Shown: positions 1 to 48,998, numbered from the stretch's first letter. The stretch is 64,000 nucleotides of DNA from Candidatus Dojkabacteria bacterium (GCA_025993875.1 JAMQHH010000014.1:8009-72008); one strand, 5' to 3'. Notes: generated by a model not told the origin, from the sequence alone. Numbers and translations: made by a program.

Positions 1-335
1 TCCGAAAGCTGACCTTTATACATTGCTTTTTTAATTTCAGATACTTCTTCTTTACTTCTCTGTACATCGTCTTCGGTTATCTGGGTTTGACTTTGAAATC
101 TGTGAAGTATGGGAATATAGTTTTGTTCTCTTAAAAATCCTTTGTAATCGGCAATAGTCAACTTATCGATTTTTTCAAAAGGAGTTTCTATGTAATATAA
201 ATACGAGGAAAAAATTTCCAGGTCACGTTGATAATTTTCTAAAGTTTCCTTTGAATAATTATTGTTTTTTAGATTTAACAAAAACTCTCTAAATCTGGGT
301 AGCGTGTATTTAAAAGTTGTGTCCATAGTAATCAT
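1..335 (-). CDS. Partial CDS running off the window start: N-terminal part of a tyrosine recombinase/integrase (Xer-like, N-terminal SAM-like domain)
   Basis: Reverse-strand translation from ATG at 335: MITMDTTFKYTLPRFREFLLNLKNNNYSKETLENYQRDLEIFSSYLYY... The block TLENYQRDLEIFSSYL resembles the conserved N-terminal core-binding domain of XerC/XerD/phage integrases. The C-terminal catalytic part lies outside the window. Confidence 0.4.
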   Translation of the reverse strand, partial: MITMDTTFKYTLPRFREFLLNLKNNNYSKETLENYQRDLEIFSSYLYYIETPFEKIDKLTIADYKGFLREQNYIPILHRFQSQTQITEDDVQRSKEEVSEIKKAMYKGQLS

Positions 336-521: not shown

Positions 522-950
522 ATGCAAAACAGAAGAATAACATTAGTTCGCCCATCGCAGATTTTTGATAGTTTTATGGACGAATTCTTTAACAGCAATA
601 CGGGAGTTAATTCAGTTTATCAAGGAGGAGTAGATGTAGATATGTACGAAGATGATACTCATGTAGTTGTCAGCTTTAAAGCCCCGGGCTTTAAAAAGGA
701 TGATATAAAAATAACGTTAGAGGATAATGTTTTAACAGTTGAAGGAACAGTAAAAAAAGAAAGTGAGGAACAAAGTAAAAAATATTTTCTAAAGGAAGTT
801 GCTTACGAGAATTTTATTAGGTCGGTAAGCTTGCCTGCAAAAGTTAAGCCGGAAGAAGCAGAAGCCAAACTCGAAAACGGAATAATGACAATAAAACTTC
901 CAAAGGCCGAAGAGATAAAGCCTAAAACTATAACAATAAAGGCAGACTAA
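522..950 (+). CDS. Small heat shock protein, Hsp20/alpha-crystallin family
   Basis: 142 aa. The alpha-crystallin domain pattern (DVDMYEDDTHVVVSFKAPGFKKDDIKITLEDNVLTVEG...ENGIMTIKLPK) is typical of IbpA/Hsp20. Followed by a clear terminator. Confidence 0.85.
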   Translation: MQNRRITLVRPSQIFDSFMDEFFNSNTGVNSVYQGGVDVDMYEDDTHVVVSFKAPGFKKDDIKITLEDNVLTVEGTVKKESEEQSKKYFLKEVAYENFIRSVSLPAKVKPEEAEAKLENGIMTIKLPKAEEIKPKTITIKAD

Positions 951-9176: not shown

Positions 9177-9248
9177 GCAGATGTAGTTCAATGGTAGAAT
9201 GCTTCCTTCCCAAGGAAGAGGTTGCGAGTTCGATCCTCGTCATCTGCT
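9177..9248 (+). tRNA. tRNA-Gly (anticodon CCC)
   Basis: Cloverleaf folded by hand: acceptor GCAGATG/CATCTGC, D-arm GTTC-AATGGTA-GAAT, anticodon stem CTTCC/GGAAG with loop TTCCCAA (CCC), variable AGGTT, T-arm GCGAG-TTCGATC-CTCGT, discriminator T. No CCA is encoded. Confidence 0.85.
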
Positions 9249-17061: not shown

Positions 17062-18135
17062 ATGAAGAAAAAGGTTTTTGCCGGGTTATCAGGCGGAGTG
17101 GACAGCTCTTTGTCTGCGTTGCTTTTAAAAGAGGCGGGGTACAATGTTACCGGAGTCTTCTTAAAAAACTGGTCGGGGGACGATTACGGCATACAATCTG
17201 ACTGCCCCTGGGAAAAAGATCAACAAGATGCCGAAAATGTATGCAAGATGATTGGTATTGATTTTATGTCGTACAATTTTGAAAAAGAATACAGAACAAA
17301 AGTTGTCGAGTATTTTTTTAAAGAATATAAAAAAGGTAGAACACCAAACCCCGATGTAATGTGTAACAAGGAGATAAAATTTAAACTTTTTCTGGAAAAA
17401 GCAATGTCGGAAGGCGCAGATTTTATTGCAACCGGTCACTATGCTCAAATAAAAAAAATTGATAATAATAGAATCTCGCTTTTTAAAGGAAGTGATCCAA
17501 AAAAAGATCAAAGCTATTTTTTATACACCTTAAGAAAAGAGCAACTTAAGAAAATAATTTTTCCTGTTGGCAACCTAACAAAAGATCAGGTTAGAAAAAT
17601 TGCCGAACAAAAAAATCTTCCAACTGCCAAAAAACCCGATAGCCAGGGGATCTGTTTTATTGGAGAGATAAATGTTTTAAAATTTTTAATGTCACAGATT
17701 CCAACCAGGAAAGGCGATATTATCGATATAGATTCGGGAAAAACTGTGGGAGAACATAGTGGAGTAGAATTTTACACCATTGGCCAACGTTCAGGTTTAA
17801 AAATTGGTGGTAGTTCTTTGCCGTATTATCTTGCAAAAAAAGATATAGCCAAAAATATTTTGTATGTAGCATTAGGGAGAAATAATCCTGAACTTTTTAC
17901 ACAAGAAGTTATTTTAGAAGAGCTTTTTCTTTCCGCTCGAGATTTTTCTGAACTAAGTTCGCTTACACTATCAGCTTCGATTCGGTACAGGCAAAATCCC
18001 GCCAGGTGCAAAATTTTAAAAGAAAATAATACCGTTAAAGCTGTTTTTACCGAGCCTTTAAAAACACCATCCAGTGGGCAAAGTCTGGTTTTGTACAATA
18101 ATGACGAATGCCTAGGAGGAGGAATAATAAAATAA
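17062..18135 (+). CDS. mnmA: tRNA-specific 2-thiouridylase
   Basis: PP-loop FAGLSGGVDSSLSA and the conserved cysteines/pattern of MnmA (ATGHYA, DQSYFL). 357 aa. Confidence 0.9.
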   Translation: MKKKVFAGLSGGVDSSLSALLLKEAGYNVTGVFLKNWSGDDYGIQSDCPWEKDQQDAENVCKMIGIDFMSYNFEKEYRTKVVEYFFKEYKKGRTPNPDVMCNKEIKFKLFLEKAMSEGADFIATGHYAQIKKIDNNRISLFKGSDPKKDQSYFLYTLRKEQLKKIIFPVGNLTKDQVRKIAEQKNLPTAKKPDSQGICFIGEINVLKFLMSQIPTRKGDIIDIDSGKTVGEHSGVEFYTIGQRSGLKIGGSSLPYYLAKKDIAKNILYVALGRNNPELFTQEVILEELFLSARDFSELSSLTLSASIRYRQNPARCKILKENNTVKAVFTEPLKTPSSGQSLVLYNNDECLGGGIIK

Positions 18136-18206
18136 GGTGTCGGCGGGAATTGCACCCGCGGATAACAGTTTTGCAGACTGTCGCCTTACTACTTGGCCAC
18201 GACACC
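18136..18206 (-). tRNA. tRNA-Cys (anticodon GCA)
   Basis: Reverse complement folds as GGTGTCG-TG-GCC..., anticodon stem ACAGT/ACTGT with loop CTGCAAA (GCA), T-arm GCGGG-TGCAATT-CCCGC, acceptor 3' strand CGACACC. It abuts the mnmA stop codon and lies 2 nt from the stop of the convergent downstream gene. Confidence 0.8.
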
Positions 18207-20427: not shown

Positions 20428-21180
20428 TTACTTTATCTCTCTTATAATAAGCATTGGTGTATTACCTGATTGGCCTTGCGGATTTCCTTTTAAAATTGTT
20501 GCCAAATCGTTTAAGCTATATTTCTTTTTTACACTTTTACTTACACCACAAATATTGTTATCAATAAAATTACCATCGAGTATTATTGTTGGTATACCTA
20601 GCTTCTCTTCAACCTCATTACAAATTGATTCCGGATTTTTAGGGGCTAAAAAGCCATATCCTCTTAATTTTGGAGGATAAAATTCGGGCGGTAAAAAACC
20701 ATCTATAGCATTTACATTGTTTCCGGCTATTCTATAAAACCAACCTCTAATGCCAACTAACTTTAAAAATCCTCCAATAAATACTGCAAGTGTAAATCTG
20801 AACCAACCGGCTTCCCTTATTGCAAGCTGAATTTTTCGCGGAACTGCAAAACCCGGGTCATCTGGCCACTTTTTTACAAACCGAACAAGAAATTTTGCCA
20901 GCCAACCTACTTTTACCTCGCTTTCTTTAACGTAAAATCCTCTGGTGATACTTACAACTTTTGAAGCAATGCAGAAAAGGTCTCCTTCTTTAAAATGAGG
21001 GCTGGCATATTCCTTTATAATTTTAATTAAATCTTCGTCAAAAAGAATAAGACGGGTCTTTATCGGGTATCGGGCAAATTTTCTACCGTTTAAATCGGTA
21101 AAGATCTCCCTGCCTTCTATGGGACTTGTTTTTAGCCCTTCATCTTCGTGTATTACCTCTTCGACCTCGGCTTTATTCAT
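20428..21180 (-). CDS. Hypothetical protein with weak resemblance to F420-0:gamma-glutamyl ligase (CofE)-like fold
   Basis: 250 aa. GDLFCIASKVVSITRG is loosely like the CofE block G-D-[VI]-x-V-V-S-x-K-V-V-S-K-A-E-G. Low confidence. Its start abuts the stop of the upstream gene, so it lies within the operon 21830-19468. Confidence 0.3.
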   Translation of the reverse strand: MNKAEVEEVIHEDEGLKTSPIEGREIFTDLNGRKFARYPIKTRLILFDEDLIKIIKEYASPHFKEGDLFCIASKVVSITRGFYVKESEVKVGWLAKFLVRFVKKWPDDPGFAVPRKIQLAIREAGWFRFTLAVFIGGFLKLVGIRGWFYRIAGNNVNAIDGFLPPEFYPPKLRGYGFLAPKNPESICNEVEEKLGIPTIILDGNFIDNNICGVSKSVKKKYSLNDLATILKGNPQGQSGNTPMLIIREIK

Positions 21181-21912: not shown

Positions 21913-24792
21913 CTATTGAAGTACTGCTGTCCAAGCTACTCCTGTAACTGTATCTGCACCTGCTCCACCCGGACCTGTAACAATAATTGTTGCTGTATTG
22001 GATCCAGTTGGATCGGAAACTAATGCAACTCTTGTATTTGGTCCAGCCGATGCTGTTATTGGTGTAAATGTTATTGATTGAATCGGTGCACCTACATTAA
22101 TTACGCAAGTAAATCCTGCTGCTGTGGTAACTCCCGCACATGTTAAATCTACGCCTCCTGTTACTACATTTCTTGCCTGTAGTGCTGTTACGTCAGCTTG
22201 AAGGTTTGTAATATCAGTTTGAGCGGTTGTCATAGCAGTTTGCAGATTTGTTACATCTGTTTGTAACAATGTAACCGACGAATTAATATTTGTTAATTCG
22301 GAAGCTACATCTGCGTATCCTGTAATAGAGAGAGTTCCCAAAACATTTAGGTTTCCAGTTAAATCAGCATTACCTAAATAAGCATTTGCCCATCTGTAGG
22401 TTGTATTACCTAAACTGTAAACATTATCAATATCGGGAATTAAATCGCTATCGACTGTACCTAGGAATGTTGCCATGTTGTTTACAACAAGATCATTTAC
22501 TGTGAGTTGAGCATTAATAAACGAATTACTGTCAACTGTTAATGCACCACTAAATGAAGCATCTCCGGACTGTGTAATAGTTGCTCCACCTGCTCCATAA
22601 CCTGCTCCTGTAGCTAAAAATCCATCCATATAGATATCACCTGTATCGGTTAAGGTTAAACCTCCATCAGCATCTCCATAACCACCCGCTACATTCATAT
22701 AACGGTTTGTTCGTAGTGCTCCAAATTCGTCTATAGTTAAACCTCCGTCGGCATCACCAAACCCACCTCCGACTTGCAGAGAGAAATCAACAAAGCTTGT
22801 CTCTGTTGTTGTATTGTCAGAGTAGACATTTGCCCATCTTGTAGTATCTGAGCCTAGGTTGAATAAAGAATCCCACGATGGCATGGCATTGCCAAAGAAT
22901 GTGGTTGTTCCAGCTCCATCTACCCACAAAAGCGTTCTAAACGGATCGTCTCGTCTTGTTATAATCATTCCGCTATTATCTTCGATAGTTAGCGGATCGG
23001 AATCACCGGAACTGATTGGACCGGTTATTACTACTCTGTCGGAGTTTGCATTTCCTAAAAATACATCTCCGGTTGCTCTTAAATTATCGTTTACTACAAC
23101 GGTTCCCGTAGAGTTGTAAATTTCTCCGTTTACATTAAGATTTCCACCAACTGTTGCATTTCCTAAAATATTTGCGTCATCACAGTAGCTTGAGCCTCCC
23201 GTAGTTGTAAAGCAATCTGCAAAGATGTTATCTACAAACAGGTTTGCCCAAGAATGTGCTGCGCTTCCAAGGCTATATATTCCGTCACCATCCGGTAATA
23301 TGTCAGATCTTACCAAAGAATAAAATCTTACTATATCGGCATCGCTATTACCGATTCTAACTTCGCCATTTAAAAACGAAGTTCCATCGGTTGCTATATT
23401 TCCTCTGGTGTACATATCTCCGGTTGAATTTACTACAAAAAGTTCATTATTTGTTAAATCAAAAAGCCTTATTCCGGATGCTGCAGTATGAATTGCTCTT
23501 ATATTTAATTCACTTGCATCTACTGTTCCTTCTACTCTAAGATCTCCGATTAACTTTGCTTCAAAATTTGTTGCTTCGGGAATTTCAAATCCGTTATCAC
23601 CAGTTCTTAAAACGCTAAATACCGGGTCACCGATAGCGGTAAGTCCCACTTCTAGGCTTCCTAATACCTGAGCATTTTCATCTACTGATAGGTTATCAAC
23701 AATATGCGCACTATCGCAGTATGTAGAACCTCCCATTGAAGAAAAACAATCTGCTGAAAGATTTGCAGCATAAATATTTGCCCATCTTAAAGCACTTGTT
23801 CCTAAGCTATAAGTATTATCTACCATTGGCACAAGATCAGAAGTAGCTCTACCTAAAAAGAATAGTGCGTCGGATGCGCTGTTTCCTAAATATGTATCAA
23901 AATTAAAATAACTTGCACCTTCGAAAGTGCTTGTTCCTAAAACTCTTAAAGTTCCATCAAATCTTGTATTTGCAAATCCTACAAGATCATCAACCAAAAT
24001 CGTTTTACCATATACATATAAGTCCTCGCTCAGTCGAGTAAGACCGTTTACTGTTAAAGCAGGTGCCAATGTTGATGCATAGGGAGAATTTATTGTTAGG
24101 GCCCCGCTCATAGTATCTCCCGTAACGTTTACGTAAAGATCATTTGCCTGGCCTTTTAATAAAACGTCTGTATTACTGTTGTTATCAAGGTATCCTTGAT
24201 CGGCTAAATCCGAGTATGCATCAAAATATGTGTTTCCTAATAATCCTGCATTTATGTTACTTGCATTTCTAAAAAATGTTGAGTCAAATCCATCTAGTAA
24301 ATCTGCATTTCTGAAAAAAGACGAATCAAATCCGTCCAATAAATCAGAATTTAATCCAGACCCGTTTCCCTGCAAAAGGTTAAGAGTAACATTTTGTCCC
24401 GATGTGGTAACAGGAAGATTTCCACTTATTGAGGTAATTGTTATATCACCCTCCGAGATGTTATTAATAGAAGTAATGTTTTCAGTGGACCCTATAGGAA
24501 AAGAGAATGGGGTGTCTTCCTCGCCGGGTGCTTTTACAACTAATTCGTCGTTTTCGTTGACCAAAACTTTTAGCTCACCTTCTTTAGTTGTAGCTCCAAG
24601 AACCTGATCGTTCTTTTTTGAATCGAGATCTTCGGTGATCAATTTACCTTTAATAGTTTGACCATCCTTTAATTCAATACCAATTTCTTTATTATTTAGA
24701 TTGATATTGGGGGTAAATAAACCTATTACTGCAATGATTACAGCGATCAGGCTGAATGCTGCAAGTAACCTAACTACATTAGATTTACTCAT
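21913..24792 (-). CDS. Large (959 aa) repeat-containing fibrous secreted/surface protein (tail-fibre-like repeats)
   Basis: N-terminal signal-anchor. G/T/S/N/D-rich. A tandem 14-aa repeat DLLDGFDS(S/T)FFRNA x2. Four copies of a D-[LI]-[VIL]-P-x2-D-x2-Y-S-L-G-x4-[RS]-W-A-N-x-[YF] unit, two followed by ADCF..GGS.YCD. A GYGDADGGLT x2 repeat. A C-terminal coiled-coil-like TNLQ...TNLQADVTALQ. Confidence 0.6.
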   Translation of the reverse strand: MSKSNVVRLLAAFSLIAVIIAVIGLFTPNINLNNKEIGIELKDGQTIKGKLITEDLDSKKNDQVLGATTKEGELKVLVNENDELVVKAPGEEDTPFSFPIGSTENITSINNISEGDITITSISGNLPVTTSGQNVTLNLLQGNGSGLNSDLLDGFDSSFFRNADLLDGFDSTFFRNASNINAGLLGNTYFDAYSDLADQGYLDNNSNTDVLLKGQANDLYVNVTGDTMSGALTINSPYASTLAPALTVNGLTRLSEDLYVYGKTILVDDLVGFANTRFDGTLRVLGTSTFEGASYFNFDTYLGNSASDALFFLGRATSDLVPMVDNTYSLGTSALRWANIYAANLSADCFSSMGGSTYCDSAHIVDNLSVDENAQVLGSLEVGLTAIGDPVFSVLRTGDNGFEIPEATNFEAKLIGDLRVEGTVDASELNIRAIHTAASGIRLFDLTNNELFVVNSTGDMYTRGNIATDGTSFLNGEVRIGNSDADIVRFYSLVRSDILPDGDGIYSLGSAAHSWANLFVDNIFADCFTTTGGSSYCDDANILGNATVGGNLNVNGEIYNSTGTVVVNDNLRATGDVFLGNANSDRVVITGPISSGDSDPLTIEDNSGMIITRRDDPFRTLLWVDGAGTTTFFGNAMPSWDSLFNLGSDTTRWANVYSDNTTTETSFVDFSLQVGGGFGDADGGLTIDEFGALRTNRYMNVAGGYGDADGGLTLTDTGDIYMDGFLATGAGYGAGGATITQSGDASFSGALTVDSNSFINAQLTVNDLVVNNMATFLGTVDSDLIPDIDNVYSLGNTTYRWANAYLGNADLTGNLNVLGTLSITGYADVASELTNINSSVTLLQTDVTNLQTAMTTAQTDITNLQADVTALQARNVVTGGVDLTCAGVTTAAGFTCVINVGAPIQSITFTPITASAGPNTRVALVSDPTGSNTATIIVTGPGGAGADTVTGVAWTAVLQ

Positions 24793-24888
24793 TTAAAATA
24801 ACTAATATATAAAATATATATTTCTAACTATTGACTGATTATAGCACAGAGCTGCCTATTGTGTATAGTAGTTAAGAAAAAGTCGCAA

Positions 24889-26832
24889 TTAGTGATTTTC
24901 TTTTAAGAGCATGTACATGTAACTGTAACTATTAGAAGAATCGAGGTTGATTGTTTTTAGCTTTTCAAAATTTATCTCTTCTATGTTGTTTATTGCTGCC
25001 CAAAAGTATATTTGATCTTCCAGAAAACCGCTTCCCGACATATTATTTATAAAGTATTGATACTGGATTAAAGCATTAGGGTTATTACGTAGGTAAAAAC
25101 TCCCGCGCGAAATCGGCAATATTATTATTCCAAGCTTTGCTTCAATTTCGTTACTAAAAAAGGTAGCGAGTTCGGCTTTTCCTTGCCATAAAAGTGAGAT
25201 AAAGGGAAGGTTTTCGGGTAGAACGCTATTGTAATTCCACCAATACTCTTTTGCAGCCTCAATTTCCATTGTATAAAGGGAAAGCGCGTAGTTTTGCATT
25301 TCCAAATTGTTACTAATTCGCGCGTTAAGGTAAACTGCATACCAAGCATTTATAGCTTCCGAAACTGATTCTTGATTATTCCCGTCTCTAAACTGATCAA
25401 GCCCATTTGCCCATGAATGCCATTCAAAAAGATCGAAATATCTTAAAAATGGGTAGCTTGTGTTATCTAAATTATAATTCATTATATCTAATACAAGTTT
25501 GGTAACAATCCCAGCATACTTTTCTTTAAATTCTGTATCAATTTCTGCAAGTTGTGTGTAAGCATAAATAAAATATCCATAGTGAAAGTGATGATCATTG
25601 TATCTTTCAGATCCAAAATCAGGCTTTTGCGCTAGGATGCCTTTCCCGCTTGTATCGTATGCAAAATATTTATTATTCTCGCCCTTAGTGTATGTAAACC
25701 AGTCTATTAGTTCGCTTTTTAAAACTTCTGAAATTAATTTTGTGCGTTTCCCGCTATCGGTTTTATCCAGCAAGATTGCCGGCTCGAGCATGTTGGCAAG
25801 CCTGAAAAGCTCTTTACCAATAAAATATATTGATGAGCTTTGCACAGATAATGTACTCAGATCGATTTTCATTAGGCTATCTAATTCGGCTAATATATAA
25901 CCTTCCTTGTATGGCGACTTATCGGGTACAGAAAGATCTATTGAAAGTGCTAACTCTTTTCCGATAAAAGTTTCTAACTTACCTCTTATTGTACTGATTG
26001 AAAAGGCAGTATCTACATTTTTTTCTAAAAATTTTTTATGAATTGGGAGAAATCCGATAAATGTGTCTCCTTCATTTTCTGTATAGATTTGATACTCTAA
26101 TCCCAGCTTGCTGTTATCGGCAAATGTAAAGTTTACCTCAGATTTTACAGGAAGGTTTACTGCCGTTTTTTGGTAAAACTCCAAATATATCTCGTTTGGA
26201 ATGTAACCCAAAGCTATGTATTTGCCAGAAATTTTTTTTTGGTCCTGTATTGTTGCACCCTCTAAACTTTCCAAATAAAAAAGTTTTCCTGACTCGCTTA
26301 CAATTACCTTTTCTTCTTTAAAATTTTCAGCCTGTTTTAGTATAAAACTATTTTTGCACTCAGATATATAAATAAGAGGGTTACCTCTAACCAATGTTAA
26401 TTTAAAAAATCCGGTATCATTATAAAATTTATATCTAGCCAAAAGAGCATCAAAATATTCAAGCTCGTAGTTATAGGTATTATCGAATTCTATTGTTAGA
26501 TCGGGAGAAAAACTTTGAAAAACTCCCTGTTCTAATGTAATTTGAGAAGGAATAGAATATGCAATTTGTGTAGCCGAAAGCTCTATAGAATATGGATAAG
26601 GGTAAATTGGATTGTCTTTTTCGCCAAGGCTTCCCGTAAACCACTTATTTGTTGGTAATGGCTGTTTTTGCAAATCTTTAGAGAGTTTTAAAGTGTATGT
26701 GGTGCTTATTTCGGGGGAATTTTCAGAATATACTTCCTCCTCAATGTATAAGGGTTTTAAACCAGAGGAAACGATAATAATTGCAATTCCTGTTGTAAAA
26801 AGTGTAAGAAAGATAAAAAAGGTAGATTTCAT
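24889..26832 (-). CDS. Membrane-anchored glycoside hydrolase, GH81-like endo-beta-1,3-glucanase
   Basis: 647 aa with an N-terminal TM segment. The block YNDHHFHYGYFIYAYTQLAEID matches, as I remember it, the conserved GH81 motif (DHHFHYGY). Its start overlaps the stop of the HlyD-like gene (ATGA). Confidence 0.5.
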   Translation of the reverse strand: MKSTFFIFLTLFTTGIAIIIVSSGLKPLYIEEEVYSENSPEISTTYTLKLSKDLQKQPLPTNKWFTGSLGEKDNPIYPYPYSIELSATQIAYSIPSQITLEQGVFQSFSPDLTIEFDNTYNYELEYFDALLARYKFYNDTGFFKLTLVRGNPLIYISECKNSFILKQAENFKEEKVIVSESGKLFYLESLEGATIQDQKKISGKYIALGYIPNEIYLEFYQKTAVNLPVKSEVNFTFADNSKLGLEYQIYTENEGDTFIGFLPIHKKFLEKNVDTAFSISTIRGKLETFIGKELALSIDLSVPDKSPYKEGYILAELDSLMKIDLSTLSVQSSSIYFIGKELFRLANMLEPAILLDKTDSGKRTKLISEVLKSELIDWFTYTKGENNKYFAYDTSGKGILAQKPDFGSERYNDHHFHYGYFIYAYTQLAEIDTEFKEKYAGIVTKLVLDIMNYNLDNTSYPFLRYFDLFEWHSWANGLDQFRDGNNQESVSEAINAWYAVYLNARISNNLEMQNYALSLYTMEIEAAKEYWWNYNSVLPENLPFISLLWQGKAELATFFSNEIEAKLGIIILPISRGSFYLRNNPNALIQYQYFINNMSGSGFLEDQIYFWAAINNIEEINFEKLKTINLDSSNSYSYMYMLLKENH

Positions 26833-27455
26833 ATTCTAAGTTTTACATCTACAGGTTGCTCAAAAAAAAGCCCATTTGGAACAGGGTCGATTTTAAACAG
26901 AGCTTTTATCTCGCCATCGGTAAGAAATGGATAAAGATATATAAGTTCTGCATTGTGAGGCGATTTGTCTAAAGGATTGATCCACTCTGCGGTTTTTGGC
27001 TGAGTAAAGTCAAAATCAATTGTCCAGTTAAATGGTATCGAGGCTTCAATATAATCCGAATCTACAACTATAATATCTAATATCTTGGCATATAAAGTTA
27101 CTGTATCACCTTTGTTAAGACTTATATTAGTAACCTCTCCTTTAGAAGTTGAATATACACTCGAAATAAATGATTCTTCTGTATTAGTTTGTTCGACCCC
27201 AACAATATTATCTCCTACTCTTCCTAAAAGAGTTTCTATTTCTGCAATTTTTTCACCTTTATCTACAAAATCACCATTTGTTACATACATTTCTTTTATC
27301 TGCCCTATCGAAACTGAATTTATAGTGGCTATTTCGGCCTTTAATTTTCCTTTTAGAGTAATTTCTTTTTTATTGCTAAAAACCTTGTTAAATAATAGAT
27401 AACCAAATCCGAAAATTAAAATTACAAACATTACTGTAAAAATTCTTTTACTCAT
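26829..27455 (-). CDS. HlyD-like membrane-fusion/periplasmic adaptor protein (biotin-lipoyl-like barrel)
   Basis: 208 aa. An N-terminal TM segment, then GQIKEMYVTNGDFVDKGEKIAEIE, a lipoyl-like hairpin typical of HlyD/MFP adaptors. Overlaps the GT2 synthase gene by 8 nt. Confidence 0.45.
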   Translation of the reverse strand: MSKRIFTVMFVILIFGFGYLLFNKVFSNKKEITLKGKLKAEIATINSVSIGQIKEMYVTNGDFVDKGEKIAEIETLLGRVGDNIVGVEQTNTEESFISSVYSTSKGEVTNISLNKGDTVTLYAKILDIIVVDSDYIEASIPFNWTIDFDFTQPKTAEWINPLDKSPHNAELIYLYPFLTDGEIKALFKIDPVPNGLFFEQPVDVKLRI

Positions 27456-29010
27456 TTGTTGCTAAATTAATATGTAATCTCTCTTTTCTGCTTTTTTTTC
27501 GGTAAAATTTAGTAAAAATCATTGTCTTGAGTCCTTTTTCCTTAATAAATTCAAGGATAATTGTGCCAAATAATGCTGAATAAAGGCTTACCCAAAATAT
27601 ACTTAAAACTGTCGACGGAATGTCTCTAGGCTTAATTGCACCAATCACGATGGATGCTATTCCTAGCCCAAAAATAAGAAGGTGCGGATATATTACCGAG
27701 AAATTGGTCTTTGTTGTTTGTATTCCGTTAGTTGCCTGCCATACAAATTTTCTTCCTAAAAGAATTTCAAAAAAACTGCCTATATATATTGGAAAAGTTG
27801 CAATAGAAAGAGCCATAGACTTAAGTTTTAATCCGCCCATTGCATATAGCGTAATAGAAAAGTTTATTATAAAAAAGGGAATATATCTAATCAGCCAATC
27901 GGTTGCATTATTTGTAACTATGGGTCTTTCTCCTGTTAGCAGATAAATCATAGGAAATAAAACATAAGCCATAATTGCAAAGCCCGAAAGATAAAAAGTG
28001 CACGACATATATTGTATTCTTTGATCTAGTGAAAGATTTCTATTAAAAAGGGGAAAATGTTCCAACAACATAGAAAATCCACCTCTGGACCACCTTCTTT
28101 GTTGCTTAAAATATGATTCTATGGTGTCTGGCGCTAGTCCAATCGCCATAACATCCGGAACATAAAGCGTTTTCCATTTTAATTCGTGCAATTTGTACGA
28201 GGTAAATACGTCTTCGGAGTGGCTAACCTGTGCAAGCCCACCCATTTCTTCTAAAGCTTTTCTTCGATATATTACGTTTGTGCCTACGCAAAATGCAGCG
28301 TTAAACGAATTTTTACCTGGCATTATTAGCTCATAAAAAACATTTTGAATCGGTAAAGCTGCTTCTTCAACAAAGGTGGATCCTTTCTTATAGTACTGTG
28401 GAGTTTGTAAAAGAGCCAGATTTTCATCGTCAAAATATGGGAGCAATTTACTTAAAAAATCTTTTCTTGGAACAAAATCGGCATCAAACACAACTATGTA
28501 TTCACCATTTGATTGTTTTATTGCATTATTTACATTGCCCGATTTAAAATTTTCGTTAGTACCTCTATGTATATATTCAACTTTAAGAGTCTTTGCAAGA
28601 GTTTTGAGCTCATCTCTGCCTTTATCGTCCAAAATATATGTTTTGTGATTAAGATCCATACTTTTAACTGCAACAACTGTTTTCTTTATTACACTGAAAG
28701 GTTCGGTTACAACCGGTATAAACACATCTATTGTTGTCTTTTTAAACTTTTTTTGCAGTTCTTCTTTTTTTGCGTGTAAAGGTGTTGGCTCTTTATGGTG
28801 AAGAATTGTCCACCAAACAAAAACTGAGTGGACAATAACATAGGTTTCAACAATTATGTAAAAAATATATAGATAAGGGTTTGAAATAATTGAGGGATTA
28901 ATAATAAAGGAAAAATATAGAAGTGCAAATATTATTGCTAAAAAGGTAAGCAACAAAATTGACTTTTGCGCCTTTTGTAACTTGTTAAGATGTAACTCTT
29001 CTCTAGACAT
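27448..29010 (-). CDS. Processive family-2 beta-glycosyltransferase (cellulose/curdlan/chitin-synthase-like) with multiple TM helices
   Basis: 520 aa. The D, DxD (VVFDADF), TED-like and QQRRWSRG (QxxRW) motifs of processive GT2 polysaccharide synthases are present. TM helices occur at both ends. Confidence 0.75.
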   Translation of the reverse strand: MSREELHLNKLQKAQKSILLLTFLAIIFALLYFSFIINPSIISNPYLYIFYIIVETYVIVHSVFVWWTILHHKEPTPLHAKKEELQKKFKKTTIDVFIPVVTEPFSVIKKTVVAVKSMDLNHKTYILDDKGRDELKTLAKTLKVEYIHRGTNENFKSGNVNNAIKQSNGEYIVVFDADFVPRKDFLSKLLPYFDDENLALLQTPQYYKKGSTFVEEAALPIQNVFYELIMPGKNSFNAAFCVGTNVIYRRKALEEMGGLAQVSHSEDVFTSYKLHELKWKTLYVPDVMAIGLAPDTIESYFKQQRRWSRGGFSMLLEHFPLFNRNLSLDQRIQYMSCTFYLSGFAIMAYVLFPMIYLLTGERPIVTNNATDWLIRYIPFFIINFSITLYAMGGLKLKSMALSIATFPIYIGSFFEILLGRKFVWQATNGIQTTKTNFSVIYPHLLIFGLGIASIVIGAIKPRDIPSTVLSIFWVSLYSALFGTIILEFIKEKGLKTMIFTKFYRKKSRKERLHINLATNE

Positions 29011-30092: not shown

Positions 30093-31280
30093 TTAGTAAA
30101 CATACAGTAGAAGTGACTTTAAATAGTCTATCTCCATGTGGTTAATATTTATTGGATGGTCTGAAGCAAGCCTTTGTCTACTTATAATTCTCACCTCTCT
30201 TTTTGCATCAAAGGCTGCTTTTTTAATAATTTGTTCAAACATCTCCTGGCTTAAATGATACGAACACGAGCATGTTAAAAGAATTGATCCGACAGGCATT
30301 TTAGATAATGAAGTTCTGTTAATTTCGGCATAGCCTTTTACTGCCTTATCCAAGTCGGTCTTCTTCTTGGCAAAAGCAGGTGGATCTAAAATAATTATGT
30401 CGAAATTTAATGGATTGGAACGTAAAAAATCAAAAGCATCTATGGCTAAAAAATCGTCATCTCCTATACTAAAGCTATTTGCTTCATAGTTTAGCTTACA
30501 TTGATTAATTGCCGGCTCCGAAATATCTATGGTAGTTACAGAAAGAGCGTTTCCTGATTTTGCATAAAGGCTAAATCCTCCTGTGTAACCGAAGCAGTTT
30601 AAAACTTTTTTCCCGTTTGAATAAGTTCCAATTAGGTTTCGCATCTCTCTTTGATCCAAGAACAGCCCAGTTTTCTGACTCTCAGTAATATTTACTACAA
30701 ACTTTATTCCATTTTCCTCCACTAAGGTATTCGAGGAGAGATTTCCGTAAAGTAAACCCTCAAATGGCATAAGTCCATCTTTTGATCGAGCACTCATAGT
30801 AGATTTTTCGTAAATTCCCTCTATTTTCAGCCCAATTTTACTTGAAGCATTCTTAATAAATTTAATAATTGTATTCTTTAACTTATCTATCCCAACAGTC
30901 GAAATTTGCAGGACCAAAATATCGTTATATCGATCAACTATTAGGCCGGGAACTAAATCACCTTCACCATTTATTAGCCTATATGCATTTGTGTTTTTAT
31001 CGTTAAATAGGTTTATACGCATTCGAAATGCCTTTTCGACGTTTTTTTCTAGTGATACAAGAGGATTCTCAGTACTGTAGTTAATCATTCTAATTGCTAT
31101 TGTTGTTTTATTGTTGCAGTAGCCGTGACCTAAAAATTCGTTTGAATAAGAATAAATTTCACAAATGTCACCATCGGCGAATTTTGCGCCATGGCTTATT
31201 GCACCACTAAAAATCCAGTGATGCCTTCTTTTTATGGGAATCTCCTTGCTTTGTTTTAAATAAATTGACGGATATTTCAT
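30093..31280 (-). CDS. PUA-domain class I SAM-dependent rRNA (m5C) methyltransferase, RlmI/RlmK-like
   Basis: GFSLYA motif I region, IILDPPAFAKKK (the DPPxF motif of m5C RNA MTases), and an N-terminal PUA-like region. The probable start is MKYPSIY at 31280, adjacent to the upstream stop; the ORF track extends to 31319. Confidence 0.65.
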   Translation of the reverse strand: MKYPSIYLKQSKEIPIKRRHHWIFSGAISHGAKFADGDICEIYSYSNEFLGHGYCNNKTTIAIRMINYSTENPLVSLEKNVEKAFRMRINLFNDKNTNAYRLINGEGDLVPGLIVDRYNDILVLQISTVGIDKLKNTIIKFIKNASSKIGLKIEGIYEKSTMSARSKDGLMPFEGLLYGNLSSNTLVEENGIKFVVNITESQKTGLFLDQREMRNLIGTYSNGKKVLNCFGYTGGFSLYAKSGNALSVTTIDISEPAINQCKLNYEANSFSIGDDDFLAIDAFDFLRSNPLNFDIIILDPPAFAKKKTDLDKAVKGYAEINRTSLSKMPVGSILLTCSCSYHLSQEMFEQIIKKAAFDAKREVRIISRQRLASDHPININHMEIDYLKSLLLYVY

Positions 31281-32125
31281 TGTATTAATAGCTGTTTTAG
31301 GTAATGCATTCCCCCCCATAATGCTCCCAAGTCGCCAAGTTCCGACTTTAAAATTACCGGTTTAACAGGTATTCGATTATATATCAAATTGTATTCTTTT
31401 ATCAGTTTTTCAATAACTATTTTATTGCCGTTAACGAGTCCTCCTCCCAATACTAATGCCTCCGGCGACCAACACATTGTTATATTTGCGAGTCCGATTG
31501 CCAAATAATTATGTACTTTCTCCCATACTGCTATATCGGCAATTTCACTTGGTTGTTTATTATATTGAGCTTTTAACGCGCTACCCGAAACAAGATTTTC
31601 CAATGTATAAAGTTTTTTATCTATTATCAGAATTTGATGTCCGGGTTCAAAGCCGGTGTAGTGTGGTTCAATAGCATTGTTTACTATCTTTACCCCACCT
31701 ACTCCCGTACTTATGGTTATATACCCGTTAATTTTATAATTTTTTGCTGCCCCAAAAACCGATTCTCCCAACCCAACCATTGCCGTATCGTTTTCTAAAT
31801 AGCAGCGCACACTGAGAGCTGCTTCTAATTCATTTTTTAGAAACACACCTTCCCATTCTTTTAAATGTGGGGCTTTTAGTAAAAAACTTTTGGAAGGTTC
31901 AAGTGTTCCGTGTACACCTGCAGCGGCTAATTTTAAAGAGGAACCTGCTGAAAAATCTTTTATATATTTTTTTGCAATTGAGATAAAATCTCTAAAATTT
32001 TTTGGGGTTGAAAATATTAAAGGTTCGGTAAAGCTTTTTAGCTCCGAACTTAGTGCAATCCGAGATTTTGTTCCTCCTATATCTGCTAAAAAATACATAT
32101 TTTTAATCTTTATCATGCCTGCCAA
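31277..32125 (-). CDS. ROK-family glucokinase
   Basis: ADIGGTKSRIAL (N-terminal ATP-binding), ENDTAMVGLGE, and ISTGVGGVKIV ROK motifs are present. The true start may be MYFLADIGG at 32098, which removes the 23-nt overlap with zwf-gnd. Confidence 0.7.
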   Translation of the reverse strand: MAGMIKIKNMYFLADIGGTKSRIALSSELKSFTEPLIFSTPKNFRDFISIAKKYIKDFSAGSSLKLAAAGVHGTLEPSKSFLLKAPHLKEWEGVFLKNELEAALSVRCYLENDTAMVGLGESVFGAAKNYKINGYITISTGVGGVKIVNNAIEPHYTGFEPGHQILIIDKKLYTLENLVSGSALKAQYNKQPSEIADIAVWEKVHNYLAIGLANITMCWSPEALVLGGGLVNGNKIVIEKLIKEYNLIYNRIPVKPVILKSELGDLGALWGGMHYLKQLLIQ

Positions 32126-34295
32126 ACATATGCCTTATTGCGGTAACTATTTTCCCGGCAAACCTTGGATTAGATTTAGCAGTTATCCTAAAATTAAGTG
32201 AATCTTCTATAACTTTAACATCTACTCCAAGTTTTTTACCTGTTTCCACTGTCCAGTCGCCCATACCGGTATGGGGTGTAATGTGTGAAATCGTATCGAG
32301 TTTATTAGAATAGATTAAAAATGCCTGCCATAACCATACAATTAATTTCGATTCTATTATGCTTCCTGAGCTATAGTTTCCAGCAACCTCCAAAAGGTCA
32401 ATTTCGGGACTATACGTATTTATAAGTTCAAAACCCTCTGCGATAGACTCCATCATTCCATATTCTATTCCGTTATGAACCATTTTTACAAAATGCCCTT
32501 CTCCCGGGTTTGAAAAAATTGTGTATCCCCCTGTTTCGCAGATGCTTTCGAAAAGGTATTCGACAGATCTCGTAACATCCGGTTTTCCTCCTACCATTAC
32601 TGTAGCTCCATTTCTAGCGCCGGTTGGCCCTCCCGAGGTTCCCATATCAATAAACTCAATTCCTTTCTCTTCTAAAAGCTTAAATCTTCTTAAAGAGTCT
32701 ATGTAGTTCGAGTTTCCTCCATCGATAATAATATCTCCTGTCTCCAAAAAGTTTATTAAACCATTTTCGCTAAAAATCACCTCTTCAATAGGATCCCCTT
32801 CTGGTAAATATAAAAGTATTGTTCTTGGCTTGGACATTGCGCTACATAAATCCTTAATGCTATTAAATCCATTAGCTTTATTTTTTACAAAATCAGCCAT
32901 TTTTTCGGGGGTCCGGTTGTAAACGAATAGGTTCCAGCCCTTATCTAGTAATTGATAAGCTATCCCGCCCCCCATTTTCCCTAAACCAATTATTCCAACA
33001 GTTTTTTTGTGATTCTCTACATTTTTATGTAACAGAGGATAAGAATAATCGTTATAAGTAACGATCCGATTAGGATCTTTTAATTTGTTAAACACAGGTA
33101 ATATTAAGTTCCAGCAAAATTTGGCTTCGGATACGGTTACTAGTTTCGAAAAATCACTCTTCAATATTATTTCGTTAAATGCTTTGCAGTATTCGGTAAG
33201 ATACGATTCTCCTTCTTCGTTCTCTTTTTCTGAAAAATATGAAATCTCTTTATTATTGATATTTGCAATAATATATTCTGAGTTACGATTAAAGGAGATA
33301 AGTAGAAAGTCCCCATTTTTAAAATTAATTTTTATCTCTTTTTCGACTTTAGAAAGCTTTTTACCACCTTCAATTTTGGCTACTACTCCTCTCCATCTGG
33401 GGGATTTTAGTTTAAGTTCCATTTTAAAAAAAGTTTCAGTACAAGATCTTTCCAGACCTTCTATGGTTTTATAAGAACTATACTGGCCAAGTATTAATGA
33501 TTGGTCAATAACCTCAAACGATTTTATTGCCCACTCTCTTTTTTCGGCAAAACTTACGGGGTTATATTTGTCAAATTTATCCATAGTAACTAAGGCTAGC
33601 ATTTCGAGCGCATGATTTTGCCCTACATCAGTTAAGGCGCCTGTTGAATCGTAAAATATACTGCGTTTTTCTATGCCTGATGTTTCGTTAATTTTTATTT
33701 CTATGCTTTTTACATAATTTTTATTTAGCGCAGACTCAAAAAGAGAAATTTCAAATCTAAATTTTAGAAAAGACTCTACGATTTTTTTGTAAAGGTAGTG
33801 ATCTATAATATAAAAATTACTACTCAAGTTATTAGCTTGTATTGATGTAGCAATTTTATTGGCTTCGGCCGGTGAGTTTCCGAATGGTTTTTCAGATAAA
33901 AAGAATAATTCGACAGAAGTTAAGGCCAACCGGTTAATTTTTACAATAATATCGTTGTAGCCTGTTGGCGGTACACTTAGATGGATAAAAGCTTTTTGTA
34001 TACCGTTTTTAAGAATGTATTCTTCAATTTTGGAGTAAAGTTCATCATTATTAAAATCACCACTTATAAAATCGGTATTTTTTTCAAGTGGCGAAATATC
34101 CTCAGAATTAAAAATCTCAGTTTTTAAAAAACTAAGAAACTCGGTTTTCCCGAATTGTTTTCTGGATATCCCAATAATATCTACATTTAGAAATTCGGGA
34201 TTCTTTTTGCACAGTAACTTAATACCAGGGAAAATTTTTCTTTTTGCCAGGTCTCCAGTTGCTCCAAATATAAATAAAGCTGTTTTCTTTTCCAT
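32103..34295 (-). CDS. zwf-gnd: Fused glucose-6-phosphate 1-dehydrogenase / 6-phosphogluconate dehydrogenase (decarboxylating, short form)
   Basis: 730 aa. N-terminal half carries the G6PD motifs GATGDLAKRK, EKPFG, IIDHYLYKK (RIDHYLGK), and DVGQNHALEM. C-terminal about 300 aa carries the 6PGD motifs IIGLGKMGGG, DGGNS, GTSGG, and HFVKMVHNGIEYG. Confidence 0.85.
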   Translation of the reverse strand: MEKKTALFIFGATGDLAKRKIFPGIKLLCKKNPEFLNVDIIGISRKQFGKTEFLSFLKTEIFNSEDISPLEKNTDFISGDFNNDELYSKIEEYILKNGIQKAFIHLSVPPTGYNDIIVKINRLALTSVELFFLSEKPFGNSPAEANKIATSIQANNLSSNFYIIDHYLYKKIVESFLKFRFEISLFESALNKNYVKSIEIKINETSGIEKRSIFYDSTGALTDVGQNHALEMLALVTMDKFDKYNPVSFAEKREWAIKSFEVIDQSLILGQYSSYKTIEGLERSCTETFFKMELKLKSPRWRGVVAKIEGGKKLSKVEKEIKINFKNGDFLLISFNRNSEYIIANINNKEISYFSEKENEEGESYLTEYCKAFNEIILKSDFSKLVTVSEAKFCWNLILPVFNKLKDPNRIVTYNDYSYPLLHKNVENHKKTVGIIGLGKMGGGIAYQLLDKGWNLFVYNRTPEKMADFVKNKANGFNSIKDLCSAMSKPRTILLYLPEGDPIEEVIFSENGLINFLETGDIIIDGGNSNYIDSLRRFKLLEEKGIEFIDMGTSGGPTGARNGATVMVGGKPDVTRSVEYLFESICETGGYTIFSNPGEGHFVKMVHNGIEYGMMESIAEGFELINTYSPEIDLLEVAGNYSSGSIIESKLIVWLWQAFLIYSNKLDTISHITPHTGMGDWTVETGKKLGVDVKVIEDSLNFRITAKSNPRFAGKIVTAIRHMFGRHDKD

Positions 34296-34424
34296 TCTTA
34301 AAAAGTAACTACATATAACTATAATTTAGCACCAAATTTTTTACAAATGTTTTGAAATTTTTTTTGTAGCTTTCCGTATTATCATTAAAGATATAAAAAT
34401 AAATTTAACTGTTATATTTTTTAT

Positions 34425-34757
34425 ATGCAGCTAGTGTTTTATCATTCGGGCATTTCGAAACCTACAGTTGAGACATTTGAAGAGTATTCCAAGATTAAAT
34501 TTCCAAGGTTACAGAAATTATATGCAAAAAAGGAGGATAGTAATCCTCTTATACAGGTAAGTATAAAAAAAGAACCACACGAGTTTGATATGAGTATTGA
34601 AACTTTTTTTAGAGGTAAAATGTTTGTAGTAAAGGAAAAAGCGGAAAGTGTAAAGGAGGTAATCGATAAATGCTATAAAACTCTTCGTTATGCTCTGAGT
34701 ACATATAAAAAACGCCAGATGGAGCACAAAGCAGAATGGAAAAGCGCAGTGGTATAA
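34425..34757 (+). CDS. hpf: Ribosome hibernation-promoting factor / RaiA (YfiA) family
   Basis: 110 aa. MQL...G...T...E...K...L...V.L and the AESVKEVIDKCYKTLRYAL..YKKR pattern track E. coli HPF ([27 protein letters not shown]). Confidence 0.55.
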   Translation: MQLVFYHSGISKPTVETFEEYSKIKFPRLQKLYAKKEDSNPLIQVSIKKEPHEFDMSIETFFRGKMFVVKEKAESVKEVIDKCYKTLRYALSTYKKRQMEHKAEWKSAVV

Positions 34758-47811: not shown

Positions 47812-48432
47812 ATGGAAACAGCTTACGCAATTAAAAAATATAAGTTAGTTAATACAATTTTACATCAATATTTTAAAAATAGAGTAAATGTTTTGGATGT
47901 TGGCTGTGCAACAGGAGAAATTACCGATTATCTTACAGACATAAATTATACAGGAATAGATATTGATAAAAGTAATATTTTAGAGATGAAAAAGCGAAAT
48001 CTGAAGGTAATTGAAGTTGATTTAAGTAAAGAGATTCCTAAAATTAGTAAGAAATTTAATGTAATTTTAATGCTGGATATATTAGAACATCTTCAAAACC
48101 CCGCAACTGTTATAGAAAATTCAAAAAATCTTTTGGAAAAGGAGGGCATTTTATTAATAAGCCTTCCGAACGATTACAACTTTTTTAACAAAATTCGATT
48201 TCTTTTAAATAAAAATATAAACTGGGATCCATTTGATCCGTACGGACATTTACACATTTTCCCGATAAAAACCGGAGAAATGTTTTTAGAACAAACCGGT
48301 ATAAAAATTGTGCAAAGCTTTTTTTTGGAGTCAACTAAACCCGCGTTTTTAGGAAAACATATTTTAAAACTTCTTTCTAAAATAAGCCCTAATAACTTTA
48401 GCCGAGGGGTATTATATATTTGCAAAATATGA
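47812..48432 (+). CDS. Class I SAM-dependent methyltransferase
   Basis: 206 aa. Motif I VLDVGCATGEI, and motif II/III regions (ILMLDILEHL). Confidence 0.6.
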   Translation: METAYAIKKYKLVNTILHQYFKNRVNVLDVGCATGEITDYLTDINYTGIDIDKSNILEMKKRNLKVIEVDLSKEIPKISKKFNVILMLDILEHLQNPATVIENSKNLLEKEGILLISLPNDYNFFNKIRFLLNKNINWDPFDPYGHLHIFPIKTGEMFLEQTGIKIVQSFFLESTKPAFLGKHILKLLSKISPNNFSRGVLYICKI

Positions 48433-48998
48433 AAATTTACACAAAAACCGGTGATAAAGGTGAAACAGGTTTTATTGGCGGAAGAGCTTCTAAATCGAAT
48501 CTTCTATTTGATGTTTTAGGGACACTGGACGAGTTAAATTCGGTACTTGGTATAGCTGTTTCAAAGGCTAATGCAATAGAAGAACTTAAAAATATGATGT
48601 TAAAAATTCAGTCTGCTATCTTAACAATAGGAGGATTTTTTGCAGGTAGTGAATTTACTTATAATTTAAAAAACGAAGTCAATGTTTTGGAACAAAGCAT
48701 TGACTTAATGGAAAAAGATTTAGAACCACTAAAAAATTTTATTCTTCCTGGCAGTAGCAATCTTGGTGCATATTTGCACTATGCTCGCTCAATTTGTAGA
48801 AGAGCCGAAAGGTCAATTATTATATTTGAAGGTTCAAATGATTTAAATGTTTTAAGAAAAACAGGCTATAACCCTCAAAACATTTTATTTAGTGAGGTAA
48901 AAATTTATATAAACAGGCTTTCGGATTGGCTCTTTGTTGCTGCAAGGTGGGAAAATAAAAAAAGAGGTGTAAAAGAGACGTTATGGAATGTTGGGTAA
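48420..48998 (+). CDS. ATP:cob(I)alamin adenosyltransferase, PduO/MMAB type
   Basis: 192 aa. MKIYTKTGDKGETGFIGGRASKSNLLFDVLGTLDELNSVLG matches the PduO-type N-terminus (IYTRTGDKGETSL...R..K.....EA.G..DEL). Confidence 0.75.
   Translation: MQNMKIYTKTGDKGETGFIGGRASKSNLLFDVLGTLDELNSVLGIAVSKANAIEELKNMMLKIQSAILTIGGFFAGSEFTYNLKNEVNVLEQSIDLMEKDLEPLKNFILPGSSNLGAYLHYARSICRRAERSIIIFEGSNDLNVLRKTGYNPQNILFSEVKIYINRLSDWLFVAARWENKKRGVKETLWNVG

Follow-up and report, generated by a model that had tools for sequence, protein, structure and literature searches.

A single bacterial polypeptide joins the modules for the first and third steps of the oxidative pentose-phosphate branch. In a 64,000-nt stretch of DNA from a Candidatus Dojkabacteria bacterium (GCA_025993875.1 JAMQHH010000014.1:8009-72008; hereafter the window), one uninterrupted open reading frame (ORF) encodes a 730-aa protein in which a compact glucose-6-phosphate dehydrogenase (G6PD; EC 1.1.1.49) module is connected through a 17-aa linker to a short-chain 6-phosphogluconate dehydrogenase (6PGD) module (Table 1). 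Judged from its sequence, this ORF likely specifies a genuine bifunctional oxidative pentose-phosphate enzyme, co-transcribed with a ROK-family kinase predicted to supply glucose-6-phosphate. The two activities, their NADP+ preference, what the kinase phosphorylates, how the lactone is hydrolysed, the oligomeric state and any benefit of being fused are inferred rather than observed.

Four Pfam domains were identified in the ORF, each over its gathering score and with E values from 1e-15 to 1e-43, far beyond chance. A reading made from the DNA alone (the sequence-only reading) had described, on the strength of eight motifs, a complete G6PD followed by a short-form 6PGD in a single zwf-gnd polypeptide. 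All eight motifs are present in the translation, the four domains bear out both halves, and the linker lies where the junction had been placed, near nt 33000-33050. The range originally assigned to the system, 31277-34295, comprises the fusion together with the downstream ROK gene (PF00480). The window has a G+C content (GC) of 33%, and ~93% of it is coding sequence, in which TGA serves as a stop. In an AlphaFold2 monomer model (mean predicted local distance difference test score, 87.9; predicted template-modelling score, 0.68), only aa 424-428 are of low confidence, or disordered, in the region that joins the two modules. No PDB chain spanning both modules was found among the structure matches.

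Conservation and origin of the fused gene

A search of 5.8 billion proteins (NCBI, JGI, ENA and Logan) yielded 104 clusters at 90% identity that contain all four domains, with query coverage of at least 91% and lengths of 730-843 aa; when 1.84 billion representatives were scanned exhaustively with HMMER, ~13-17 full-length fused representatives at 50% identity were recovered. Named fused homologues come from Kerfeld-, Nealson-, Gottesman- and Andersen-bacteria, Paceibacterota and Minisyncoccia, and the host of the window protein is itself assigned to the Candidate Phyla Radiation (CPR/Patescibacteria). The BipA encoded in the window shares 65-69% identity with proteins of Candidatus Doudnabacteria and Dojkabacteria, and 73% with proteins encoded on contigs of ~1.1 Mb. 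These homologues are annotated merely as "glucose-6-phosphate dehydrogenase", which names one of two activities; such labels under-call the oxidative pentose-phosphate branch in CPR pathway reconstructions. The bacterial fusion of G6PD to a short 6PGD is thus to be regarded as a conserved, selected family across many CPR lineages and some Coriobacteriia.

An assembly or sequencing artefact, in which adjacent zwf and gnd genes had been joined by a missed stop codon or frameshift, was the first alternative to be weighed. Separate adjacent genes are indeed usual elsewhere: among the matches listed from species-representative genomes, the modules occupy separate adjacent ORFs at 76 of 80 loci and are fused at one, in a scan that under-samples CPR and in which the window's own genome did not appear, so that the proportion of fused to split loci, 1:76, gives no estimate of frequency. 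At one CPR locus (L008), moreover, the two reading frames are in phase with two stops between them, so that one error would be enough to simulate a fusion. The identical 730-aa product, however, is encoded in one and the same neighbourhood on 15 contigs, which were assembled independently from six or more sequencing runs. The single ORF is kept in orthologues at 99, 88 and 57% identity and in ~100 more distant clusters; in L092 and L087, two orthologues assembled independently, the reading frame continues through the linker. Both halves are under strong purifying selection, with ratios of nonsynonymous to synonymous substitution rates (dN/dS) against the 88%-identical orthologue L092 of 0.087 for G6PD and 0.077 for 6PGD. 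The artefact explanation is effectively refuted: the sequencing error that the sequence-only reading had named as its own possible undoing is ruled out by the independent assemblies, the 104 fused clusters and the selection on both halves, and the conservation in relatives that it had left to be checked is now documented.

The L008 locus (Candidatus Moraniibacteriota JALVQA010000001.1, 5962-8322) illustrates how the fusion may have come about. Among the matches listed, it is the only locus carrying a short gnd in zwf->gnd order and in frame; nearly all non-CPR loci have the order short-gnd->zwf, the reverse of the fusion. Its two genes are split by TAA-AGA-ATA-AAA-TAG, that is, two stops and three sense codons ('...KH*RIK*MTLGYIGLGKMG'), and its gnd product shares 55-61% identity with the corresponding 6PGD portions of fused proteins. 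The locus is either the recent product of a split or the state that immediately precedes fusion, and fusion and fission are therefore only a couple of point mutations apart. Both events have probably happened more than once, and the fusion itself probably arose from an adjacent zwf->gnd pair through loss of the intervening stop codons.

The sequence-only reading had suggested streamlining in a reduced genome. A restriction of the fusion to CPR, or its origin in genome reduction, was rejected on the basis of two high-GC loci. The sole fused genome locus of the 80-locus scan (L007; JALHJB010000009.1, 5944-8346) lies on a 67% GC contig whose threonyl-tRNA synthetase is 89-92% identical to sequences from Anaerosoma tenue and from Coriobacteriia metagenome-assembled genomes (89% for the cultured A. 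tenue). A second fused gene (L091; GCA_964565645.1, 8001-10349) is found on a 68% GC contig. Proteins of 782-789 aa form a subgroup that shares ~60% identity with the L007 protein, and one of them is encoded on a 68%-GC contig. The fusion thus also exists outside reduced low-GC genomes, and streamlining is undercut; the CPR locus L008, for its part, keeps the genes split. Presence outside CPR possibly reflects horizontal transfer, conceivably with movement of the fused gene between CPR and Actinomycetota, and a cultured relative might carry the fusion.

Features of the two modules and the linker

The N-terminal module, with Pfam domains PF00479 and PF02781, retains the signature motifs of G6PD, including GATGDLA (11-17), EKPFG (135-139), QNH (226-228) and IIDHYLYKK (163-171), in which D, H, Y and K are retained and R->I and G->Y replacements are seen. 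Its key residues (T13, R45, E135-K136, D165-H166-Y167-K170, H228 and K312) are invariant across an alignment of the window protein with fused relatives (alignment A1). D165, H166, Y167, K170, H228 and K312 align to D177, H178, Y179, K182, H240 and K343 of the Leuconostoc mesenteroides enzyme (1dpg/1e77), with H228 as the equivalent of the catalytic base, and R45 corresponds to the Arg for the NADP+ 2'-phosphate (R46 in L. mesenteroides). The predicted structure of this module contains the G6PD fold (Rossmann plus beta+alpha domain): Foldseek matched it to 7e6h, 1dpg and 8i37 with E values of 9e-33 to 3e-30 and target-normalised TM-scores of 0.75-0.85, the closest being 8i37, the compact 428-aa Helicobacter pylori enzyme.

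The C-terminal module scores 287.1 bits against NF007161/PRK09599 (short-chain NADP-dependent phosphogluconate dehydrogenase; cut-off 271), over positions 2-298 of 302. Its helical hemi-domain is single and unduplicated, in a module of 299 aa whose best PDB matches measure 340-353 aa; its closest solved relatives are the short-chain enzymes 8ihe/9ijb and 10gw/6xeq, and HIBADH and tartronate-semialdehyde reductases, of the same fold family, match it more weakly in NCBIfam. The module contains GLGKMG (437-442), N460-R461-T462 of the NADP type, the SGG substrate loop (S554-G555-G556), the catalytic Lys/Glu pair of the HFVKMVHNGIEYG motif (K604 and E611, with H607 and N608), and a C-terminal RX2FGXH motif (R721-H-M-F724-G725-R-H727). 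In tetrameric short-chain enzymes, RX2FGXH binds 6-phosphogluconate across subunits (bioRxiv 10.64898/2026.01.21.700892); the motif roles given here are taken from that work and from PMC8900737.

A preference for NADP+ is indicated by R45 in the first module and by the "Asn-Arg-X" motif N460-R461-T462 in the second. Across 98 fused proteins, the cofactor motif is NR[STN] (NADP-type) in 66, of Asp type in at least 12 (e.g. FDPQ, YDPS, HDPD) and unclear in 20. An Asp-type motif is expected for NAD+ use, which suggests that those fused members use NAD+.

Short-chain 6PGD also has other fusion partners in public data (P0141, P0162, P0247, P0200, P0250 and P0203). It is found behind phosphoglucose isomerase (PGI; 735 aa), behind a shikimate-kinase/AAA_33 (gluconokinase-like) domain (478 aa) and behind a pyridine-nucleotide-disulfide oxidoreductase (764 aa), whereas it is N-terminal in fusions to transaldolase (P0247, 579 aa) and RpiB (P0200, 481 aa). 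In P0203 (715 aa), a ~400-aa N-terminal part without a Pfam assignment at threshold precedes it. No description of these fusions was found in the literature searched. The idea that G6PD must be N-terminal so that the 6PGD tail stays free is weakened by P0247 and P0200, and by the report that residues past RX2FGXH make no substrate contact (bioRxiv 10.64898/2026.01.21.700892).

The linker varies in length and sequence across relatives (alignment A1, columns ~530-560) and evolves faster than either module (dN against L092: 0.154 for the linker, 0.073 for G6PD and 0.045 for 6PGD). The most compact family members are P0002, P0003 and the window protein, to which these two are the nearest relatives; in all three the linker is shortest and two G6PD loops are absent. 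A short, disordered and fast-evolving linker is also what would be seen if the chain were cleaved after translation into G6PD and 6PGD, with fusion merely ensuring co-expression. This we consider very improbable: neither a protease site nor a bacterial precedent was found, translational coupling of the kind seen with the ROK gene gives co-expression without fusion, and the fused state is kept across very divergent lineages.

G6PDs are dimers or tetramers. Short-chain 6PGD enzymes are tetrameric (bioRxiv 10.64898/2026.01.21.700892, PMC8900737), so that a D2 arrangement built around 6PGD as the core is a plausible prediction. Assembly of the short-chain homotetramer involves exchange of the C-terminal helix among subunits. 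The fused family offers a test case for the assembly of dimeric and tetrameric enzymes when fused.

ROK kinase, predicted pathway and gene neighbourhood

The gene downstream of the fusion encodes a ROK-family sugar kinase whose conserved ATG (32098) lies 4 nt past the fusion's stop codon. With either of the alternative starts upstream, 32116 or 32125, the gene would extend into the fusion; the upstream ATG is not conserved (ACG in L092), and the orthologous loci L092 and L087 begin ROK at the equivalent ATG. The fusion->ROK order is kept at 88% (L092), 57% (L087) and 38% (P0010) identity. Two more distant fused genes directly adjoin PGI, and one other has neither neighbour; the recurring neighbours are therefore glucose-6-phosphate-making enzymes. 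CPR ROK proteins could not be placed with glucokinases by Jaffe et al., who found glucokinase to be rare in CPR (PMC7304191). The conserved linkage provides genome-context evidence for the CPR ROK clade as hexose kinases, a matter that phylogeny alone was unable to settle (PMC7304191).

In the proposed pathway, the tightly coupled ROK kinase would convert glucose to glucose-6-phosphate, as the most likely supply, and the G6PD module would oxidize this to 6-phosphoglucono-delta-lactone with formation of NADPH. The delta-lactone would be hydrolysed to 6-phosphogluconate spontaneously or by a hydrolase unrecognised here, and the 6PGD module would then yield ribulose-5-phosphate, CO2 and a second NADPH. 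Two polypeptides would thus carry glucose to pentose phosphate with a gain of 2 NADPH. A strict substrate channel is excluded because the two reactions are not consecutive; the most economical benefit of the fusion would be a fixed 1:1 expression and co-localisation of the dehydrogenases. As a compact natural enzyme predicted to form 2 NADPH per glucose-6-phosphate, the protein would be a ready part for cofactor-regeneration cascades.

Several findings weigh against this bifunctional interpretation. The activity of family members is itself predicted from sequence. The G6PD module reaches 205.3 bits against TIGR00871 (zwf), about half of the equivalog cut-off (400.6), over profile positions 2-362 of 486; it is divergent, and the shortfall arises because the C-terminal third is deleted or diverged. 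In alignment A1 the two missing loops amount to ~18 and ~26 aa relative to other fused members, and the position of Gln Q365 in L. mesenteroides is occupied by Phe. The 6PGD module narrowly misses TIGR00872 (gnd_rel; 269.5 vs 297.2), a narrower, NAD+-dependent equivalog. For the ROK protein, the score against TIGR00744 (ROK_glcA_fam) is 79.7 bits vs a glucokinase cut-off of 260.35. The zinc motif CxCGxxGC is missing (the sequence reads EPGHQILIIDKKLYTLENL, with no cysteines, and continues past the ExGH motif, here EPGH, as QILIIDKKLYTLENL), and the best PDB matches, a fructokinase (Bacillus subtilis 1xc3) and a glucokinase (Streptomyces griseus 3vgk), fit about equally well. The claim of the sequence-only reading that the fusion is co-operonic with glucokinase therefore holds for the operon with a ROK kinase and goes too far in naming a glucokinase, which for so divergent a ROK protein is a matter of inference. 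A weak match of this kinase to polyphosphate-glucose phosphotransferase was also seen.

The pathway likewise shows gaps. Neither Glucosamine_iso (PF01182) nor a beta-propeller Lactonase was detected by Pfam in ~55/58 window ORFs, and no lactonase was seen beside six fused relatives, leaving step 2 without an enzyme there; the earlier statement that no lactonase lies near the fusion is upheld to this extent. Transketolase, transaldolase, RPE and RPI were equally absent from the same ~55/58 ORFs of the 64-kb window, which does encode a PfkB kinase and phosphoglycerate kinase. The fused protein itself contains no Glucosamine_iso domain at E<=0.01, its second module being 6PGD. The sole lactonase trace, a "faint" match to PF10282, concerns a beta-propeller protein of 561 aa encoded close to P0028. 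A novel lactonase is possible, since 12 of the scanned ORFs have no Pfam match at the threshold used. The delta-lactone hydrolyses spontaneously, and the lactonase 6PGL is required for efficient flux (PMC3148214). In CPR the oxidative branch is reported to be patchy, and these bacteria often are without phosphofructokinase (PFK) and use a non-oxidative pentose-phosphate shunt (PMC7304191).

Some of the module-level findings would also fit a fusion that is real but has one module of changed function or catalytically dead, for example a G6PD half that acts on another sugar phosphate or serves as a scaffold, or a 6PGD half that is another beta-hydroxyacid dehydrogenase. The low TIGR00871 score, the narrow miss of TIGR00872, the two deleted loops and the replaced R and G of RIDHYLGKE all lend themselves to such a view, as does the inclusion of HIBADH and tartronate-semialdehyde reductases in the 6PGD fold family. 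We consider it improbable, given that all known glucose-6-phosphate-binding and catalytic residues are kept (E135 and K136 among them), that the 6PGD-specific K604/E611 pair and RX2FGXH are retained and NF007161 is passed, and that selection on both halves is strongly purifying; furthermore, the H. pylori G6PD is similarly compact, and the neighbours are predicted to produce glucose-6-phosphate. A genuine bifunctional enzyme remains the preferred interpretation. A bolder extension of it, which we regard as rather unlikely, is that the fusion enables a lactonase-free oxidative branch: tethered G6PD dimers and a 6PGD tetramer would form a microenvironment, or a latent hydrolytic activity would be present, clearing the delta-lactone before its rearrangement to a dead-end gamma-lactone or its acylation of other molecules, and kinase and fusion would together constitute the main PFK-independent glucose entry in CPR and Coriobacteriia lineages.

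The fusion and its flanking features are listed in Table 1. A PUA and SAM-dependent methyltransferase gene follows ROK, in an order shared by L001-L006, L087 and L092; it is probably the last gene of the fusion's transcription unit and functionally unrelated. Upstream, a promoter scan performed no better than chance (29 promoter-like sites vs 28.3 expected), so that the sigma-70-like site at 34346..34318 is a candidate only, and a terminator scan likewise gave numbers at chance level. The divergently transcribed gene beyond the intergenic region (34425-34757, +) encodes a 110-aa HPF/S30AE-like ribosome-hibernation protein (E 1e-4, slightly under the Pfam gathering score) whose position is conserved in orthologous loci.

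A glucan-related set (21913-29010, -) adjoins the operon and comprises a 959-aa protein with a faint tail-spike-like match, a GH81 protein, a protein of 208 aa and a glycosyltransferase of the GT2/cellulose-synthase-like type. The 57%-identical orthologue, too, has GT2 and GH81 genes beside it. GH81 is an endo-beta-1,3-glucanase family, and beta-glucan turnover could be linked to the kinase/G6PD-6PGD operon. Elsewhere in the window, two cofactor-related genes unexpected in a small CPR genome were observed, one with a PduO-type cobalamin adenosyltransferase domain (48420-48998, +; E 2.9e-44) and the other with a weak F420-0:gamma-glutamyl ligase-like match (20428-21180, -; E 1.8e-7). Two tRNA genes (9177-9248, +, and 18135-18206, -) are the sole Rfam matches.

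Table 1. Coordinates of the fused gene, its modules, domains and motifs, and the flanking features (nucleotide positions are those of the window; aa positions are those of the 730-aa protein)
Feature	Position	Strand	Basis or remark
Fused G6PD-6PGD gene	32103..34295	-	one uninterrupted 730-aa ORF; ATG 34295..34293, TAA 32105..32103
G6PD module (compact form), aa 1-414	33054..34295	-	Pfam, alignment to solved structures, Foldseek, dN/dS
Inter-module linker, aa 415-431 (DYSYPLLHKNVENHKKT)	33003..33053	-	shortest among aligned relatives
Short-chain 6PGD module, aa 432-730 (299 aa)	32106..33002	-	NF007161, Pfam, solved relatives, dN/dS
G6PD_N	aa 9-174		Pfam, E 2.8e-24, 87.2 bits (cut-off 22.1)
G6PD_C	aa 178-363		Pfam, E 1.8e-34, 119.6 bits (cut-off 27); profile positions 2-206 of 296 only
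NAD_binding_2	aa 432-587		Pfam, E 1.8e-43
6PGD	aa 600-708		Pfam, E 1.7e-15; profile positions 1-115 of 290 only
Motifs, G6PD module	GATGDLAKRK 11-20; EKPFG 135-139; IDHYL 164-168; DVGQNHALEM 223-232		present in translation
Motifs, 6PGD module	GLGKMGGG 437-444; DGGNS 525-529; GTSGG 552-556; HFVKMVHNGIEYG 601-613		present in translation
ROK-family sugar kinase, 273 aa	31277..32098	-	Pfam ROK PF00480, E 3.7e-26, 92.8 bits vs 22.9
PUA + SAM-dependent methyltransferase (RlmI-like, 408 aa)	30093..31319	-	Pfam PUA_3, Methyltrans_SAM; overlaps ROK 3' end by 43 nt
Intergenic region, 129 nt, A+T-rich	34296..34424	.	between fusion and divergent HPF/S30AE-like gene
Candidate sigma-70-like promoter TTGTAA-17-TATAGT	34346..34318	-	consensus scan

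Comparison with known fusions and stand-alone enzymes

The closest precedent is the G6PDH/6PGDH fusion of the diatom Phaeodactylum tricornutum (protein 54663 / XP_002183714.1; Kroth et al. 2008, PMC2173943; Stover et al. 2011, PMC3148214). Both fusions place the enzymes of steps 1 and 3 in one frame, in the order named G6PDH/6PGDH, and leave the lactonase out; the diatom spacers measure 8-25 aa vs 17 aa in the window protein. The diatom protein is eukaryotic, cytosolic and reported to be species-restricted, whereas the window protein is bacterial, has over 100 clusters in its family and carries a 6PGD half of the prokaryotic short-chain type. The two fusions may have independent origins. A 2011 search of the nr database found no fusion beyond that of the diatom (PMC3148214), and JGI later split the diatom gene model.

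In the G6PD-6PGL enzymes (vertebrate H6PD, Plasmodium GluPho and Giardia/Trichomonas G6PD::6PGL), G6PD is likewise joined to a pathway partner, and these proteins too are usually annotated as G6PD only (PMC3148214, PMC11448927). Their partner is the lactonase, so that consecutive steps 1-2 are combined and the labile lactone can pass on directly; the window fusion has the step-3 dehydrogenase in that place. No G6PD-6PGD class appears in a structural review of G6PD types from 2024.

Separate short-gnd and zwf genes in Pseudomonas, Chloroflexota, Acidobacteriota and Nitrospira resemble the window locus in that both families are linked on one strand, with ORFs often overlapping or abutting; they differ in specifying two polypeptides, with almost all non-CPR loci arranged gnd->zwf. 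The short-chain tetrameric 6PGD enzymes of Gluconobacter oxydans (10gw/6xeq) and Mycobacterium tuberculosis (Gnd2; 8ihe/9ijb) align end to end with aa 429-728 and share the Lys/Glu pair and RX2FGXH, but stand alone at 340-353 aa, whereas the window module has a 431-aa N-terminal extension (G6PD and linker).

No description of a bacterial or CPR G6PD-6PGD fusion was found in the literature searched, which largely excluded subscription journals, and matches to "zwf-gnd" were engineered co-expression constructs; a 2022 review of 6PGD structures and a 2026 preprint on the short-chain enzymes contain neither "fusion" nor "fused" in their text. The sequence-only reading's description of the fusion as unusual is accordingly apt for the literature, in which it is described only in the diatom, and inapt for the databases, which hold a sizeable bacterial family. 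No concept is changed, both halves being textbook enzymes and the diatom fusion having been noted once before; the novelty is modest and resides in documentation and annotation, the enzymology being conventional. The bacterial fusion family to which the window protein belongs already exists, unremarked, and is functionally analogous to the diatom fusion.

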